A stretch of 63,098 nt of DNA, counting the filler, from Candidatus Tectimicrobiota bacterium (GTDB lineage Bacteria > JACPSX01), in NCBI GenBank assembly GCA_016193065.1. It is 6 parts of 6 records of this genome, joined end to end, with 100 filler letters (N's around TTAATTAATTAA, not from the genome) between each part and the next. Parts side by side here need not be neighbours in the genome. Positions count along the whole stretch, not along the records: positions 50,284 to 55,645 come from JACPSX010000212.1; 5 more parts are not named here. One strand, written 5' to 3'. Below are positions 5,503 to 62,864 of the stretch, one piece after another. The position numbers and the translations under genes are program-made. How positions within the stretch are numbered: position 1 is the stretch's first letter; every line of letters starts with the position of its first letter. Under the pieces are notes generated by a model. That model was given only the letters and a program-made list of their open reading frames with translations, was not told the DNA's origin and made no database searches.

Positions 5503-5602
5503 NNNNNNNNNNNNNNNNNNNNNNNNNNNNNNNNNNNNNNNNNNNNTTAATTAATTAANNNNNNNNNNNNNNNNNNNNNNNNNNNNNNNNNNNNNNNNNN
5601 NN
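5503..5602. other. Assembly linker
   Basis: N-run with TTAATTAATTAA. Confidence 0.99.
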
Positions 5603-9967: not shown

Positions 9968-10067
9968 NNNNNNNNNNNNNNNNNNNNNNNNNNNNNNNNN
10001 NNNNNNNNNNNTTAATTAATTAANNNNNNNNNNNNNNNNNNNNNNNNNNNNNNNNNNNNNNNNNNNN
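9968..10067. other. Assembly linker
   Basis: N-run with TTAATTAATTAA. Confidence 0.99.
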
Positions 10068-41001: not shown

Positions 41002-41101
41002 NNNNNNNNNNNNNNNNNNNNNNNNNNNNNNNNNNNNNNNNNNNNTTAATTAATTAANNNNNNNNNNNNNNNNNNNNNNNNNNNNNNNNNNNNNNNNNNN
41101 N
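41002..41101. other. Assembly linker
   Basis: N-run with TTAATTAATTAA. Confidence 0.99.
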
Positions 41102-49338: not shown

Positions 49339-50183
49339 ATGAGCATCATCCACGAGGCGCTAAAAAAGCTGGAGCGGCAGGGCACCCAACCGGACCCGTT
49401 CTTGCCGGCCTTGAGAGATTCCTCAAATCAAGCCGGTGATGTGCGGCGCGGGTGGAATGGGAGAACGTGGATGCTGGCTGTCCTGCTCCTGCTGAGCTTT
49501 ATCGGCGGTGGCCTGTGGGCGACACTGAAGCCTGAACAATCCCCGTTGCCGGGCGAGGCTATGACGGCATCCTCACCTGTGGTCCCTCCGCCGCAGGCGG
49601 TATCCCCCCTCACCCCGCCCCTCTCCACGCCCAAAGGGCACCCGGGGTACCCGGGGGAGAGGGTAAGTGAGGAGGATGCGCTCCTTCCCTCCAGAGAGAA
49701 GGTAGGCGAGGGGGCGTTGCCCTCTCGCTCCAGAGAGAGGGTAGGGGAAAGGGAGTTGTCCTCTCCCTCCACGGAGAGGGGAGAAAAAATGGTTTCCCCC
49801 TCCGGGGAGAAAGTGGAGTCAGGGACTTCTGCCTCGGCCGGGAGGACTCCGGGAACCGGGGGACAAAAAGCAAAGGCAAGAGGAGGGAGCGGAGGGATCG
49901 TGTCTGAAGCGCCGCAGCGGGTCCACGTCCCCACGGTTGCCTTTTCGAGTCCACCCAAGTTGAAAATTCCCGTGTTGCCGAAGAAGGAGGAGGGGAACGT
50001 TCCGGAGCCCGGGAATGCGGAGGAATATTTTCGCCGGGGCGTTCAGCTCTGGAAGGAAAAGAACGTTCCCGAGGCGGCAAAAGCCTTCGAAAAAACTCTG
50101 GAGCTCAACCCGAAGCTCGCCGAAGCCGCCAACAACCTGGGGAACCTCTACTTTGAGCAGAACCTGTTCGAGAAAGCCATTGA
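49339..50183 (+). CDS. ExeB/GspB-like membrane protein with TPRs, 3'-partial
   Basis: MSIIHEALKKLE start typical of ExeA partners, one TM, Pro-rich linker, TPR (AFEKTLELNPKLAEAANNLG). Confidence 0.75.
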
Positions 50184-50283
50184 NNNNNNNNNNNNNNNNN
50201 NNNNNNNNNNNNNNNNNNNNNNNNNNNTTAATTAATTAANNNNNNNNNNNNNNNNNNNNNNNNNNNNNNNNNNNNNNNNNNNN
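50184..50283. other. Assembly linker
   Basis: N-run with TTAATTAATTAA. Confidence 0.99.
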
Positions 50284-50729: not shown

Positions 50730-51860
50730 TCAGCGGCGCGCCCGCATCCAGTTCCAAAAGCCGCTGGGACGGGTGGCGATGCCGTGGATGTCCGAGTTCT
50801 CGCCCTCGGCGCGCACCTTGGCCACTACTCGCCACGTTTGCGTGTCCAACACGGCGAAGCCGCTCTCGCTTCCCGCCACCACGTGCGGATCGCCCGTGAC
50901 CGGCTTGCCCCGCCGGCTGACGAAGGCGTAGCGGCCGCTGGGGCTCAAGTCAAACAGGTCCGGACGGCTCCCTACCGGCACCGTGCGCAGGCGCTCGTGC
51001 GTCCGGGCGTCCAGCACATCCACCGAGTCCCCCTGGCGCACCGCCAGCAGGATGTACTTCCCGTCCGGGGTCGGCATGAAGCCGTGGCCGTCCTTCCCGC
51101 TGGGCTGAATCTTCCTCACAATCTGGCCCGTCTTTGCATCGGCTACGGTGAACTGGGTGGGGGAACTGGCGTAGAGCCAGCGCTCGTCATAGCTGGGCAC
51201 GACGGCGCACCCGTCCCGACCGATGGGCTGGATCACTTTGGTCACGTGGCCCCCCTTGGCGTCCACCACGGTGACGGTGCCAGCCTGGTCCGGGGGCGCG
51301 TTTGCGGGCCCGCCGGTGACCACCCAGAAGGTGCTATCGTCCCGGGACCAGAAAGCGCACGACGGGCGGGGATCAGTGGGAATGGTCCGGCCCTTCGTAT
51401 AGGTGTCCCCCTGCGCCACGACCTCGACGAGGTTGTTATCCCCCACGTTGGCCACCCAGATCCGGGAGCCATCCCACGAGGGGGTGGCCGCGTGGGCCGT
51501 GCGGCCGGTGGGGATTCGTGTGACCACCTTCCTTTGCTCCGCGTCCACCACGAACATGCCGCCAGCGCGCACCCCGGCCACGTAGGCCCGCTTGTAGCCC
51601 GGGCCGAACAGGAGGATATGGGGCGCCACCGTAGGCTGCGGGCCCGGCGGCGCCAGGATGATCTCGCCCGACTTACTGATCCGCACCTCCCCGTCCCCTT
51701 CGGTCGCCGTGTAAATAATGACCTTGTCGTACCCTTGATCAGGGATCCAGACCTCGTAGCTCTTCGGGGCGCCGACGCCGTAGCCTCCCAGGCCGGCGCA
51801 CGCCGTCACCAGAGCCGCCGCAGCCACCGCCAACACCACCCCCCACACCCAGCTATGCAT
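50730..51860 (-). CDS. YncE/YVTN-like beta-propeller lipoprotein
   Basis: LVTAC lipobox; blades VVTRIPTGRTAH..TPSWDG.RIWVAN and VPVGSRP...SPSGRYAFV; RBS GAGGAGG. Confidence 0.8.
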   Translation of the reverse strand: MHSWVWGVVLAVAAAALVTACAGLGGYGVGAPKSYEVWIPDQGYDKVIIYTATEGDGEVRISKSGEIILAPPGPQPTVAPHILLFGPGYKRAYVAGVRAGGMFVVDAEQRKVVTRIPTGRTAHAATPSWDGSRIWVANVGDNNLVEVVAQGDTYTKGRTIPTDPRPSCAFWSRDDSTFWVVTGGPANAPPDQAGTVTVVDAKGGHVTKVIQPIGRDGCAVVPSYDERWLYASSPTQFTVADAKTGQIVRKIQPSGKDGHGFMPTPDGKYILLAVRQGDSVDVLDARTHERLRTVPVGSRPDLFDLSPSGRYAFVSRRGKPVTGDPHVVAGSESGFAVLDTQTWRVVAKVRAEGENSDIHGIATRPSGFWNWMRARR

Positions 51861-51882: not shown

Positions 51883-52458
51883 TTAAATGAACATGGACAC
51901 CTTGGCGCTTGCTGCATAGTCCAGGAAGGCCGCGGCGCCCGCGCACTGCACTCCGTCGATTAGCTCGGCTTGGCTGATGCCCATCAGCCCCATCGTGGTT
52001 GTTCAGGCAAAGAGCGAGACCTTCAACTCCTTCGCGATATCCATCAGCTCGGGGATCGTGGGGAGCTTCGCCCGGGCAATCCACGTCTTCATCATCGTCG
52101 TGGCCATGGCCGTCATCCCCGGCAGCGCTCCCACGAGGTTCGGGACCTTCATCCAGGGCAGAGACTGGAGCGGCGGCGGCATTGCCGGGTTTCCCACCGG
52201 TCCCACCTTGAGCTTCCCGATGCGGTCCCGGTGCAGGATGTCCATGCCGTAAAAGGTGAAAAAGACGCCCACCTCCCAGCCCAGGCTGCCGGCCGTGGTG
52301 GCCAGGATCAAGGGCGGGTAGGCCATGTCCAGCGTCCCTTTGGAAGCCACGAGAGCCATTCGGCTCGGCCGGCTGTCCCTGTCGGCGAGATCCTTGAACC
52401 GGCGGGCCACAACCTCGTCTACCCTCTGCTCGATGTACTGCTCCAATTCCGGGTTCAT
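51883..52458 (-). CDS. DsrE2/DsrE-family sulfur-relay protein with in-frame UGA (candidate Sec152)
   Basis: SKGTLDMAYPPLILA, FFTFYG; LFA-TGA-TTTMGLMGISQAELIDGVQCAGAAAFLDYA..A.VSMFI*; family similarity continues past the TGA at 52003-52005. Confidence 0.85.
51972..51989 (-). promoter_or_regulatory. Candidate bacterial SECIS hairpin
   Basis: GGCUGAU-GGGC-AUCAGCC starting 13 nt after the UGA; G-initiated 4-nt loop 20 nt from the UGA. Confidence 0.7.
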
Positions 52459-52493
52459 CGATCCCCTCTCTGCCTCTTCCAACCTCGCAGCCG

Positions 52494-52733
52494 TCACTTG
52501 TTCCGGCGCACGTAAAACGTGAAGACGCCGCCGGCCTCGTGGCTGGCCACCAGTTCTTGCCCGGTCTGCCTGGTCCACGCCTGCATGTCCGCCGGCGAGC
52601 CCGGGTCCGTGGCCTGCATCTCCAGAATCTGCCCCACCTGGATGGTTTGAATCGCCCTGGCGATCTTGATGACCGGCCCGGGGCACAGATCCCCCCTACA
52701 GTCCAGCACCGCGTCCGCCTTAACCGCGTCCAT
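52494..52733 (-). CDS. tusA: TusA-family sulfur carrier
   Basis: LDCRGDLCPGP, ATDPGS..DMQAW..TGQ. Confidence 0.92.
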   Translation of the reverse strand: MDAVKADAVLDCRGDLCPGPVIKIARAIQTIQVGQILEMQATDPGSPADMQAWTRQTGQELVASHEAGGVFTFYVRRNK

Positions 52734-54088: not shown

Positions 54089-54721
54089 GTGGACCCGAAC
54101 GATTCCCCTTCTTCAGGACCTTCCGTCAGCGACCCGCGATTTTGGGAAGCTCTTTACCACAATGAGTCGGACCACTGGGAACTTGGCTCACCGGCTCCTC
54201 CCCTGGTCACCCATCTCAGGAAAGATCCGCCCCCGAAAGGGAAGGTTGCAGTCCTCGGCTGCGGGCGCGGCCACGACGCCCGGCTCTTTTCGAAGCTGGG
54301 CTATGAGGTCTGGGGATTTGATTTTTCCGAGACCGCGATCAACGAGGCCAGGAAGATCGGCGGGGATCAGGACGGGCGCCTCCGTTTCGAATGCCGGGAT
54401 ATTTTCAAGCTGTCCGAGATTTATCCTGCCTTCTTCGATGTGATCTGGGAGTACACCTGCTTTTGCGCGATCGATCCGAAGAGGCGCCCCGATTACGTCC
54501 AGACGGTTCTCCACCTCCTCAAGCATGGCGGCCATTTTCTGGCCAACTTCTGGCCCGTCCGGGAAGGAACGGAAGGGCCTCCATTCCCCGTCACCCGCAG
54601 CGAAATCGAGCGCCTCTTCGGTCCCTTTTTCTCCTTCCTCACCGCTTACGAGCCATCGAACTCGGTCCCCGGGCGCCAAGGCAAGGAGTGGTTCGTGTAC
54701 GCCCGCCCCGCCGATCATTGA
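54089..54721 (+). CDS. Thiopurine/thiol S-methyltransferase-like protein
   Basis: FW..LY....DHWELG.PAP, LGCGRGHD, EYTCFCAIDP..R..Y, GPPF. Confidence 0.85.
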   Translation: MDPNDSPSSGPSVSDPRFWEALYHNESDHWELGSPAPPLVTHLRKDPPPKGKVAVLGCGRGHDARLFSKLGYEVWGFDFSETAINEARKIGGDQDGRLRFECRDIFKLSEIYPAFFDVIWEYTCFCAIDPKRRPDYVQTVLHLLKHGGHFLANFWPVREGTEGPPFPVTRSEIERLFGPFFSFLTAYEPSNSVPGRQGKEWFVYARPADH

Positions 54722-54884: not shown

Positions 54885-55645
54885 ATGCTCAATAACCCCT
54901 TCTCGCCAATGGCTGAGATCGTTCTAGACAAAAGCTATCTGGACGGCGCACCTACCAGTTCTGTCCTGGCGCTTTGTGATCGGTTCGAGGTACTTCTGTC
55001 GGACGAACTCTTCTTTGAGATGATGACGACCGCGCCCCACAGTCAAAAGCGGTGCTTCTCTAAACTGCCCAACCGCGAGAATCCGGTGGGGCTCATTCCA
55101 AACGCTGGTTTTTTGCTGCGTTTCGAGAGAGAAAATCAACGCCAGTGCACTCCCCTTCGCCAGCATCGCTTCAACGATCGCTACATCTTCAACCAAAAGC
55201 TCCGGAAGGGTAGCTTTGTCTTCGAGGGTGAGGTGCTTGAGAACTTAAACAGATGGCGCTCTCAGGTTGAGGGTGACACAAAGAAGTTCGTCGACCGATG
55301 GCTGGTTGTGCATCAGTTCTTCCCCGAGCTCAATGGCATCGAGTGGAGGGACTTCCCGGCCGCAATCACAAAAGTTCGTCAGAAGATTGCTCTGGACTAT
55401 GACTTCGTCCGTGGACTCTACGCCTCTCTATTGCACGAGGACGCACCGCCACACGCGCCGGCTCCTGCCACAGTCGGCCCTCCTTGGGCTTGGTTCCGCT
55501 GGGTCCAATGTCAGGTGCTTGCGGCTCTGCGTATTTTCGAACGGTACGGGGGCCGTCTCCCGCAGAACCCCGGTCCCGAATTCTGGCGAAAGGCGGAGCA
55601 TTCCATGCTGGACGTCTACTACGTAATACTGGGCACCCTCGCAGG
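54885..55645 (+). CDS. Hypothetical protein, 3'-partial
   Basis: Long ORF open to the contig end; TGnTATACT upstream; start may be 54909. Confidence 0.65.
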
Positions 55646-55745
55646 NNNNNNNNNNNNNNNNNNNNNNNNNNNNNNNNNNNNNNNNNNNNTTAATTAATTA
55701 ANNNNNNNNNNNNNNNNNNNNNNNNNNNNNNNNNNNNNNNNNNNN
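55646..55745. other. Assembly linker
   Basis: N-run with TTAATTAATTAA. Confidence 0.99.
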
Positions 55746-60354: not shown

Positions 60355-61593
60355 TTATTTACCCTCCTTTCCATTAAACAGATCCTGGAACGCGCTCAAG
60401 CGGGGATCTATGAGAATTGGAGAACCAACGTCGCCCATCACCGCTTCTTGAGTCTTCAACCCGTTGCCCGTAATGGCCAGGACAGTGACATCATCGGGTT
60501 GGATCCGACCCTGAGCGACAAGCTTGCGGGCAACACCGAGGGTCACTCCCCCTGCCGTCTCCGCGAAGATTCCTTCGGTCTGGGCCAGGAGCTTCATGCA
60601 TTCCACGATCTCATCGTCCGCGACGTCTTCTCCATAACCACCGCTTTCCTTGACCGTCTTGATACCGTAATAACCGTCCGCCGGGTTGCCGATGGCGATC
60701 GATTTGGCAATGGTATTCGGGATGACCGGCTTGATGAAGTCGCGATTTTCCTTAATCGCGGTCGTAACTGGAGCACAGCCGCTGGCCTGGGCAGCATGGA
60801 TTTTCGTCTTCACCTCGTCGATGAGACCCAGATGGGCGAATTCGTTAAAGGCCTTCCAGACCTTGGTGATGAGAGAACTTCCCGCCACGGGGATGACGAC
60901 GTGATCCGGGGCTTTCCACCCCAGTTGCTCGGCGATCTCGTAGCCGAACGTTTTGGAGCCGTCTCCGTAGAAGGGCCGGATCGTGATGTTTACGAAGGCC
61001 CAGGGGAAATTGGCGGCAATCTCGCTGCACAGGCGGTTCACTTCATCGTACACGCCCCGGATCCCGACCAGCGTGGTTCCGTAGATCAGCGTGCCGACGA
61101 CTTTGGTCATTTCAATGTCGGCGGGGATGAAGATGTAACTCTTGAGGCCGGCTTCAGCGGCGTGAGCGGCCACGGAATTGGCGAGATTCCCCGTGGAGGC
61201 ACAAGCCACCGTGTCGTAATTGAATTCTTTGGCTTTACTGACTGCCACCGCCACCACCCGGTCTTTGAAAGAAAGGGTCGGGTGGTTCACGCAGTCGTTT
61301 TTGATGTAGAGATTATTGAGGCCCATGACCTTGCCGAGGCGTTTCGCCTTGATGAGGGGGGTGAAACCGACCTGTAGCCCCACCGTGGGGTCCCCGTCTA
61401 GAGGAAGGAGAGGCTGATAGCGCCACATACTCCTGGGACCGCGGGCGATCGTCTCCCGGCTTAAAACCCGGCGGATCTGCTCGTAATCGTAGACAATTTC
61501 CAAGGGGCCAAAACAAAATTCGCAGACGTGCAGTGGCTCTTTCGGGTATTGCCGCCCGCACTCACGGCACTGAAGTCCCAGAACGTATCCCAT
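60355..61593 (-). CDS. thrC: Threonine synthase-like PLP enzyme
   Basis: N-terminal CRECG..CEFCFG, PTLSFKDR, ASTGN, TGNGLK. Confidence 0.88.
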   Translation of the reverse strand: MGYVLGLQCRECGRQYPKEPLHVCEFCFGPLEIVYDYEQIRRVLSRETIARGPRSMWRYQPLLPLDGDPTVGLQVGFTPLIKAKRLGKVMGLNNLYIKNDCVNHPTLSFKDRVVAVAVSKAKEFNYDTVACASTGNLANSVAAHAAEAGLKSYIFIPADIEMTKVVGTLIYGTTLVGIRGVYDEVNRLCSEIAANFPWAFVNITIRPFYGDGSKTFGYEIAEQLGWKAPDHVVIPVAGSSLITKVWKAFNEFAHLGLIDEVKTKIHAAQASGCAPVTTAIKENRDFIKPVIPNTIAKSIAIGNPADGYYGIKTVKESGGYGEDVADDEIVECMKLLAQTEGIFAETAGGVTLGVARKLVAQGRIQPDDVTVLAITGNGLKTQEAVMGDVGSPILIDPRLSAFQDLFNGKEGK

Positions 61594-61723: not shown

Positions 61724-61831
61724 CTTGTGCCGTTCCAACCGAATGCGCTGAATTTGAGCAGCATGCCTTTCCGCAAAGATTGCAACCGTAGGGAACGAAT
61801 CAGTTGGTACAAATAGTTGGAACGGTACTAG
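61724..61831. mobile_element. MITE of about 105 bp, copy 2
   Basis: CTTGTGCCGTTCCAAC...AGTTGGAACGGTACTAG; collinear with 19069-19175. Confidence 0.8.
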
Positions 61832-62751
61832 TCGAACAGGGCGGTGCTGAGATAGCGCGAGTTCGCGTCGGCAAACAGCGTGACCACCGTCTTGCCCGCG
61901 CCCAGGGAGCGCGCCACCTGCACGGCCGCGCAGCAAGCAGCCCCGGAGGAGATCCCGACCGCAACCCCCTCTTCCTGCGCGAGCTTGCGGGCCCAGGTGA
62001 AGGCTTCCTCATCGCTGACGGGGATCACCTCGTCGATGATGTCCCGGTTCAAGATCCGGGGGATGAACCCGGCGCCGATGCCCTGGATCTGGTGGGGTCC
62101 CGGCGCCTTGCCTGATAGCACCGCCGAGGTGGATGGTTCAACGGCCACAATTTTAATCTGGGGGTACGCCTTCTTGAAAACTTCCCCTAACCCGGTGATC
62201 GTGCCGCCCGTGCCAACGCCGACCACCAGAGCATCCACGGGCCGGCCCTGCATGCTCTCGATGATCTCCGGACCCGTCGTGCGGCGGTGCACTTCCGGGT
62301 TGGCCGGGTTATTAAACTGCTGGGGCATGTAGTAGTCCGGGTGCAGCGCCACGAGGGCTTCCGCCTTTTCCACAGCTCCCTGCATCCCCCAGTCCGCCGG
62401 GGTTAGAATCACTTCCGTGCCGTAGGCCTCCAGGAGTTTTTGGCGCTCGTAGCTCATCCCCTGGCAGAGCACCACGATCACCCGATAGTTCCTGGCGGCC
62501 CCGATCATGGCGAGTCCCAGGCCGGTATTGCCGCTGGTGGGCTCGATGATCGTTGCCCCTGGTTGCAAGAGCCCCTGCCGCTCCGCCTCGTCAATCATGG
62601 CCAAGGCGATGCGGTCTTTCACGCTGCCCCCAGGGTTAAAAAACTCCATTTTTGCAAGGAGATCGGCGGAATCGGCCGGAAGGATCCGGCGGATTTTCAG
62701 GAGAGGAGTACCGCCCACCAGCTTCTCAACGCTATCCGCATAGGAACCCAT
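61828..62751 (-). CDS. cysK: Cysteine synthase A
   Basis: NPGGSVKDRIA, EPTSGNTG, QQFNNPAN, GTGGT, HQIQGIGAGF, GISSGA. Confidence 0.95.
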   Translation of the reverse strand: MGSYADSVEKLVGGTPLLKIRRILPADSADLLAKMEFFNPGGSVKDRIALAMIDEAERQGLLQPGATIIEPTSGNTGLGLAMIGAARNYRVIVVLCQGMSYERQKLLEAYGTEVILTPADWGMQGAVEKAEALVALHPDYYMPQQFNNPANPEVHRRTTGPEIIESMQGRPVDALVVGVGTGGTITGLGEVFKKAYPQIKIVAVEPSTSAVLSGKAPGPHQIQGIGAGFIPRILNRDIIDEVIPVSDEEAFTWARKLAQEEGVAVGISSGAACCAAVQVARSLGAGKTVVTLFADANSRYLSTALFD

Positions 62752-62864
62752 GCTGACTCCTTCCGATTCCGGCCTTCCGTACCCTCGGCTTGGCCTGGCG
62801 ATTTTTGCAGGCGAGGAGAAACCATAACGTAAATGGGCCTGTGCTGTCAATGTTCCTTGACACC

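Follow-up and report, generated by a model that had tools for sequence, protein, structure and literature searches.

The minus-strand gene dsrE2 of a Candidatus Tectimicrobiota bacterium is very probably a genuine selenoprotein gene. Judging from its sequence and those of its relatives, it appears to encode the selenocysteine (Sec) form of DsrE2 and to have been mis-annotated as truncated across public databases. The product would be a 191-residue DsrE2-type sulfur carrier in which the active-site Cys is replaced by a UGA-encoded Sec152. The gene was analyzed within a stretch of 63,098 nucleotides made up of six joined parts of assembly GCA_016193065.1, hereafter referred to as the window, to which all positions and strands refer unless stated otherwise.

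Gene layout and read-through frame

The features of the dsrE2 locus are as follows.

51883..52458, minus strand: coding sequence of dsrE2 with the UGA read through, 191 codons and a TAA stop (51883-51885), by translation
52003..52005, minus strand: UGA codon 152, in frame after ...VSLFA, proposed Sec where DsrE proteins have their active-site Cys
51886..52002, minus strand: 39 open codons 3' of the UGA, TTTMGLMGISQAELIDGVQCAGAAAFLDYAASAKVSMFI, in the same frame up to the TAA at 51885..51883
51972..51989, minus strand: hairpin GGCUGAU-GGGC-AUCAGCC, stem 51989-51983 paired with 51978-51972, loop 51982-51979
52463..52470, minus strand: purine-rich stretch GAGAGGGG, 4 nt 5' of the ATG, a likely ribosome-binding site as read from the sequence only
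52494..52733, minus strand: tusA, 79 aa with a CPGP active-site motif (Pfam PF01206, 71.3 bits), 35 nt upstream of dsrE2
50730..51860, minus strand: YVTN-type beta-propeller gene (NCBIfam TIGR02276 repeat, 57.4 bits), 22 nt 3' of the dsrE2 stop

Read from the sequence, dsrE2 starts at an ATG at position 52458 of the minus strand, and automatic gene calls stop it at codon 151. Translation confirmed what a preliminary description of this DNA had reported, namely an in-frame TGA at 52003-52005 followed by 39 open codons that end before the ribosome-binding site of the next gene, whose GGAGG and ATG (51860) come 22 nt past the dsrE2 stop. The peptide across the UGA reads VSLFA-U-TTTMGLMGISQAELIDGVQ. 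The motif at Sec152 is accordingly U-T-T-T in translation, with Cys absent at position +3, and the second Cys of the product, C172 (51943-51945), is located in the post-UGA tail.

The TGA itself is corroborated by an independent 3,142-nt contig (sequencing run X1) that spans this whole stretch with the TGA intact and differs from the window by two letters and one gap, all within the 52467-52485 spacer. None of the 40 contig differences listed, out of 159 difference rows, falls at 52003-52005 or 51972-51989, which is a weak check. Several contigs of related strains (runs X1 and X8, from two studies) begin within 51967-51973, corresponding to the hairpin edge, as would fit if many strains share this stretch and assembly graphs branch there.

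As an ordinary stop, TGA is used more often than any other codon in the window, ending 12 of the 26 long ORFs of high GC3, which indicates an organism without general TGA reassignment. A GC3-based scan of the window retained no in-frame-TGA gene beyond dsrE2; a second candidate was rejected as antisense to a plus-strand ORF that was taken, from its translation only, to be the 3' end of pdxA. The window further contains ten runs of 44 N, arranged as five pairs 12 nt apart (5503-5602, 9968-10067, 41002-41101, 50184-50283 and 55646-55745), which break ORFs, among them 49339-50235 and 54885-55697.

Family assignment, fold and structure model

For profile searches of the 191-residue product, C was substituted for U. 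The product matches Pfam PF13686 (DrsE_2) at 145.9 bits (cut-off 25) over positions 4-156 of the 156-position profile, and this complete profile is covered only on read-through. Its score against PF02635 is 24.2 bits (cut-off 22.7), far from the value for PF13686. The NCBIfam DsrE2 equivalog NF047629 is matched over positions 5-159 of 159 at 167.1 bits, which lies under its 210-bit cut-off.

Structural comparison led to the same superfamily. DsrE-family structures rank first in a Foldseek search, with 2qs7 (DsrE2B, Saccharolobus) as the best match (E 1.6e-10). The closest solved structures, 2qs7, 3pnx and 3mc3, all have a Cys aligned to residue 152, and codon 152 aligns to the 'FAC' of 2qs7 and the 'YAC' of 3pnx. 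The AlphaFold model has a mean pLDDT of 73, with the highest values (89-94) found over residues 141-180. Residue 152 is placed by the model at the end of a strand (148-152) followed by a helix (153-159), and the elements contributed after the UGA are this helix, a strand at 171-173, a helix at 175-183 and a strand at 187-190. An extra N-terminal helix is modeled at residues 3-27. If the model is correct, a product stopping at residue 151 would be missing its active site as well as a portion of the core.

Residues 85-116 of DsrE2 (window ~52111-52206, minus strand) form a proline-rich segment (VGPVGNPAMPPP...VPN..GALPGMT) that contains many invariant residues in 37 aligned proteins and is the sole part of the AlphaFold model with pLDDT below 50. 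This segment might be a loop that is flexible or used for docking.

The UGA column in relatives and selection on the tail

The preliminary description had placed the UGA at the conserved Cys of DsrE_2 proteins, and an alignment of homologs agrees: the column is Cys (TGC/TGT) in 157 of 160 fetched loci and TGA in three (L001, L081 and L083). Species-representative genomes account for 80 of these loci, 79 with a Cys codon and one with TGA (L001), and metagenomes for the other 80, with 78 Cys codons and two TGA (L081 and L083). Among the best 120 proteins listed from a large protein collection, 21 terminate at the Ala just before the UGA column. These stubs are 74-100% identical to the query, one of them being the window's own product, and are held in public records (NCBI, JGI) as proteins of 151-155 residues named 'DsrE/DsrF/DrsH-like family protein' or 'peroxiredoxin family protein'. 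The earlier proposal of a 191-aa Sec152 protein mis-annotated as truncated is supported both by these stubs and by the full PF13686 match on read-through.

A quick IQ-TREE analysis of 66 rows was based on the part of the alignment before the UGA column, a short alignment that yields modest support values. All 24 Sec rows fall within one 42-row clade that also includes 18 Cys rows, the window is found within a 13-row all-Sec subclade (SH-aLRT 92), and at least four Sec/Cys changes are required on this tree. Orthologs with UGA, which the preliminary description had suggested looking for, are thus numerous (L001, L081 and L083 among the loci; 24 Sec rows in the tree). The 90%-identity protein cluster of P0027 contains a UGA-column stub together with a full-length Cys form, P0130, suggesting that Sec/Cys switching also occurs among very close relatives. 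P0135, a third member of this cluster, matches the stub exactly up to the column and has Cys thereafter; it may represent a protein-level assembly chimera.

Selection was analyzed by Nei-Gojobori dN/dS for the six gap-free pairs of four TGA genes (window, L081, L083 and L001), which differ pairwise at 98-127 of 576 nt. For the 39 codons 3' of the UGA, dN/dS is 0.06-0.26 with dS of 0.39-1.02, and for the 151 codons 5' of the UGA it is 0.09-0.20. Purifying selection on the tail is therefore like that upstream, as looked for in the downstream frame of a bacterial selenoprotein gene. This match indicates that the tail is translated and argues against a real stop or a pseudogene. The counter-case named at the outset, a recent nonsense mutation among orthologs that all have Cys and no hairpin, does not apply here, given that UGA orthologs exist and the downstream codons are under purifying selection.

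A SECIS-like hairpin downstream of the UGA

A perfect 7-bp hairpin starting 13 nt past the UGA, as first described, was found again at 51989..51972, where it is encoded by codons G157-Q163; folded alone it has a free energy of -9.1 kcal/mol. The bacterial SECIS model given in a figure legend of a 2026 review specifies a loop of 3-9 nt, a stem of 4-16 bp, a G at loop position 1 or 2, a UGA-to-loop distance of 16-37 nt and a minimum free energy of at most -7.5 kcal/mol. When these criteria were applied by our own script, the hairpin was within the limits for all four measures, with a 4-nt loop (GGGC), a 7-bp stem, a spacing of 20 nt and -9.1 kcal/mol. As a chance check, perfect Watson-Crick hairpins of at least 7 bp with a loop of 3-9 nt, G as its first or second base and a spacing of 16-37 nt were counted on both strands of the window. 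They occur at 686 of 124,246 positions (0.55%) and follow 11 of the 1,765 TGA trinucleotides. Taken as a whole, the 71-nt region shows no stability beyond that of shuffled sequences (z = 0.57), 146 of 200 of which fold equally well. No other stem common to all four TGA genes was found in ViennaRNA folds of the 60 nt past the UGA.

Constraint on the stem was assessed at synonymous sites of eight gap-free clade genes (four Sec, four Cys), using codons that specify the same residue throughout and excluding Met and Trp. Of 114 such codons 88 vary and 26 are invariant, the latter including all four stem codons with synonymous freedom (G157, L158, I161 and S162). G157 is the sole invariant Gly codon out of 12 and L158 the sole invariant Leu codon out of 15; the third positions of G160, in the loop, and Q163, beyond the stem, vary. 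Four invariant stem codons out of four would be expected in about 0.2% of cases at the background of 22/108, a figure that is indicative only because the sequences are related and not independent.

Among Sec forms the hairpin is invariant, so that covariation is absent. Six of 164 Cys-form loci (L179, L082, L084, L181, L186 and L187) have the full 7-bp stem as well. The first four of these are the four nearest Cys relatives, all of which have the hairpin, which means that it is not specific to UGA alleles. L186 and L187 have compensated perfect stems formed via Val/Thr codons, and these could arise from codon choice alone. The original view of the hairpin as SECIS-like needs one amendment: it fits the bacterial SECIS model and is conserved, but its occurrence is not tied to the UGA. 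What goes beyond the routine is a constrained SECIS-like hairpin that, by sequence comparison, is retained in both Sec and Cys alleles of organisms predicted to be Sec-competent.

Selenocysteine machinery

No tRNA-Sec was detected in the window, where tRNA and Rfam scans gave one tRNA-Val only, and tblastn with SelA, SelB and SelD of genome G001 returned no selA, selB or selD match there. G001, the genome carrying the TGA ortholog L001, encodes selA (581 bits), selB (350 bits), tRNA-Sec (77 bits) and selD (350 bits), the last with one in-frame TGA of its own, as well as fdhA (1,218 bits), also with one TGA. By analogy with such relatives, the window's organism is likely to be Sec-competent. 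A BLAST search of 9 kb of window DNA against 251 genomes from the phylum of G001 yielded matches in short pieces only, at 63-84%. Two tRNA-Sec matches of equal score (77 bits) are found in G001, on contigs C287 and C314, one of them 3.6 kb from selB; they represent either a duplicated gene or redundancy of the metagenome-assembled genome (MAG).

ViennaRNA folds of the hairpins in G001 (two fdhA-type, one selD) have stems of six to nine pairs and the loops GGUCU, GGUCU and GGC, all beginning with GG and, by reading of the folds, starting 17-18 nt past the UGA. The dsrE2 hairpin, with its GGGC loop at 20 nt, shares this design. In four genomes with Cys alleles that have the hairpin (G022, G004, G175 and G200), selA and selB are both found above cut-off, indicating that the Cys state is not due to loss of the Sec trait.

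Genomic neighborhood

A tusA homolog adjoins dsrE2 in nine of the 12 relatives' loci examined and is located downstream of it in L082 and L179. On the other side of the window's dsrE2, the N-terminus of the beta-propeller protein has an apparent lipoprotein signal peptide and lipobox, going by its sequence only. The beta-propeller gene occupies the same position, with 81-88% aa identity, in L001, L081, L082, L083, L179 and L181. It is at least as conserved as DsrE2 and adjoins dsrE2 in all six of these loci (L001 6967-8091, L081 2041-3162, L083 1533-2660, L082 3781-4821 and L181 2168-3277, in coordinates of the respective locus, and L179).

Among the ORFs scanned at 41-63 kb of the window, no hdr, dsr, sox or rhodanese genes were found. 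A TPMT-family methyltransferase is encoded on the opposite strand 1.3 kb from tusA (54089-54721, plus strand; Pfam PF05724, 105 bits). Among NCBIfam models it fits TIGR03840 (TMPT_Se_Te) best, with a score of 52.5 bits that is well short of the cut-off of 223, and no TPMT-type methyltransferase was found in the 12 relatives' loci searched. Further away are genes for threonine synthase (60355-61593, minus strand; TIGR00260, 282 bits) and cysteine synthase A (61828-62850, minus strand; TIGR01139, 428 bits), which by window coordinates lie 8-10 kb from the tusA-dsrE2 pair, past the N runs at 55646-55745.

Proposed mechanism and alternative explanations

The proposed mechanism begins with the hairpin 13 nt past the UGA, which would act as a bacterial SECIS. 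SelB carrying Sec-tRNA(Sec) would bind this element, and the ribosome would insert Sec rather than terminate. Full-length DsrE2 would then partner the TusA encoded just upstream and hold sulfane sulfur on Sec152 as an Se-S intermediate. We infer Sec insertion in this organism, binding of SelB to the hairpin, and the sulfur-relay chemistry and partner alike, and picture DsrE2 as a TusA-partnered sulfur carrier with selenium as the carrying atom.

Gene callers and public databases, which give products of 151-155 residues, treat the UGA as a true stop; the gene would then be a nonsense mutant of recent origin, a pseudogene or one that encodes a functional truncated protein of 151 residues. The fact that the Sec competence of the window's organism rests on relatives also leaves some room for this explanation. 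We nevertheless consider a true stop extremely improbable, given that the identical stop occupies the identical column in 24 distinct rows of one clade and that the 39 downstream codons evolve at a dN/dS of 0.06-0.26, like those upstream. In addition, two strands and two helices of the modeled fold come from the tail, and only on read-through is the Pfam profile matched in full. The UGA might instead be read through without Sec, a near-cognate or suppressor tRNA inserting e.g. Cys or Trp and the hairpin merely promoting read-through. This would be compatible with the hairpin being found in Cys alleles too, and the inserted residue is itself a prediction from the gene sequence. It is, however, very improbable: the column otherwise contains only Cys, the classic Sec/Cys pairing, and TGA serves as an ordinary stop in the window. 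Moreover, G001, the sole searchable genome with a UGA relative, encodes the complete Sec machinery, and its further UGA selenoprotein genes have hairpins that share this geometry.

Sec might also be inserted at a UGA whose true SECIS lies elsewhere, with the hairpin being a by-product of the peptide G-L-M-G-I-S and GC-rich codons or having another role. Met and Ile codons fix two of its pairs and codon bias favors others, the perfect stems of the Cys forms L186 and L187 are built with Val/Thr codons, and the regional fold is unexceptional. We regard this as unlikely, as all four free stem codons are invariant against a background of 88 of 114 same-residue codons varying, and the full stem is found in only six of 164 Cys forms. 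The geometry is also that of three other selenoprotein hairpins in G001, and ViennaRNA folds of the 60 nt past the UGA offer no other stem common to the four TGA genes. A further possibility concerns function, namely that Sec is incorporated and that what the protein carries is selenium, not sulfur, the TusA/DsrE2 pair being YedF-like and supplying or detoxifying Se. YedF, as published, unites TusA-like and DsrE-like domains and co-occurs with SelD, the tusA product matches YedF models weakly (32.7 and 22.5 bits), and the distant TPMT-type methyltransferase with TMPT_Se_Te as its best model is encoded 1.3 kb away. The YedF matches are far under their cut-offs of 79 and 110 bits, though, and the methyltransferase reaches 52.5 against 223 bits, with no counterpart detected in the 12 loci of relatives that were searched. 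Most relatives, furthermore, have Cys at the site and belong to the DsrE2 sulfur-carrier family. Such a selenium-handling role probably does not apply and is the weaker alternative to a sulfur carrier.

Within the Sec-insertion, sulfur-carrier reading, a more speculative hypothesis can be put forward, which we hold tentatively and consider possible rather than probable. The hairpin may be selected in both UGA and UGY alleles of Sec-decoding organisms, allowing a one-nucleotide, reversible and repeated Se/S switch of the DsrE2 active site. Groundwater populations might as a result maintain Sec and Cys alleles as a standing polymorphism, one that perhaps follows the supply of selenium. Sulfane sulfur would be held by the Sec form in an Se-S adduct, and this form could constitute the first selenoprotein step in the TusA/DsrE relay.

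Comparison with known systems

TusA and DsrE-family proteins are described as handing on sulfane sulfur in the form of cysteine persulfides, the role of DsrE2 itself being called unclear in the published account. The closest known systems are Cys-type DsrE2 carriers (PF13686, NF047629; Alvin_2601, Aq_389 and 2QS7), with which the present protein shares the same domain end to end, the fold and the position of the active site. Clusters published for these carriers are of the tusA-dsrE2 type, and tusA likewise adjoins dsrE2 here. In contrast to Cys-type carriers, the present protein has Sec in place of the active-site Cys, an extra N-terminal helix and an NF047629 score of 167 bits against the cut-off of 210, and neither rhodanese nor hdr or dsr genes came up near its gene in the ORFs scanned at 41-63 kb. 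Liu et al. 2014 describe the DsrE2A subgroup by two cysteines that are strictly conserved and by genetic linkage to Dsr or Hdr systems. Compared by this description, Sec152 would stand at the first Cys position and C172 would be the second Cys; no dsr or hdr genes were found among the ORFs scanned.

YedF (TIGR03527) combines the same two domain types in a fused protein, whereas tusA and dsrE2 are separate genes here. In line with this, the tusA product reaches 22.5 bits on TIGR03527 (cut-off 110) and the domains are unfused, which sets the pair outside YedF. YedF's DsrE-like domain has a CGxC motif and is not reported as a selenoprotein in its published description. Rhodanese-like selenoproteins (PF00581; the 2026 review lists forms 1-5) resemble the present case in that Sec also replaces a persulfide-carrying Cys; their fold and family are unrelated.

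The assertion in the preliminary description that DsrE-like selenoproteins had been predicted before, and that the class is not new, holds just loosely, at the level of the DsrE superfamily. Zhang and colleagues published a 'DsrE-like protein' selenoprotein, reported for the Sargasso Sea and Desulfovibrio vulgaris, that is likewise a Sec-containing member of this superfamily, predicted by Sec/Cys pairing and a SECIS-like hairpin. It is assigned, however, to PF02635 and has a UxxC motif, as opposed to PF13686 and U-T-T-T here, where UxxC is absent; the two are set apart by description. PF13686/DsrE2 is absent from the table of 119 selenoprotein families in the 2026 review, and the main text of the deep-Sep paper mentions neither DsrE nor TusA, although its supplement may hold the family. 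Full-text literature searches turned up no description of a Sec-containing DsrE2; the supplementary lists of deep-Sep, Haft and Tolstoy 2025 and Deng et al. 2026 may include the family. The same applies to the source study of a groundwater Methylomirabilota MAG, for which the 2026 review gives 63 predicted selenoprotein genes and whose list may include PF13686 members.

What may be new is the Sec form within PF13686/DsrE2, selenoproteins in the DsrE superfamily being already known. Recognition of the read-through frame corrects an annotation error by which at least 21 protein clusters of the database searched are stored as stubs of 151-155 residues without the active site and one fifth of the fold. 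If the assignment is true, DsrE2 joins the inventory of prokaryotic selenoprotein families and selenium is placed in the TusA/DsrE sulfur-trafficking relay, with the natural Sec/Cys pair offering a handle on DsrE2 chemistry. The hairpin in the nearest Cys alleles would, in turn, provide a small and clean case for Sec/Cys interconversion.
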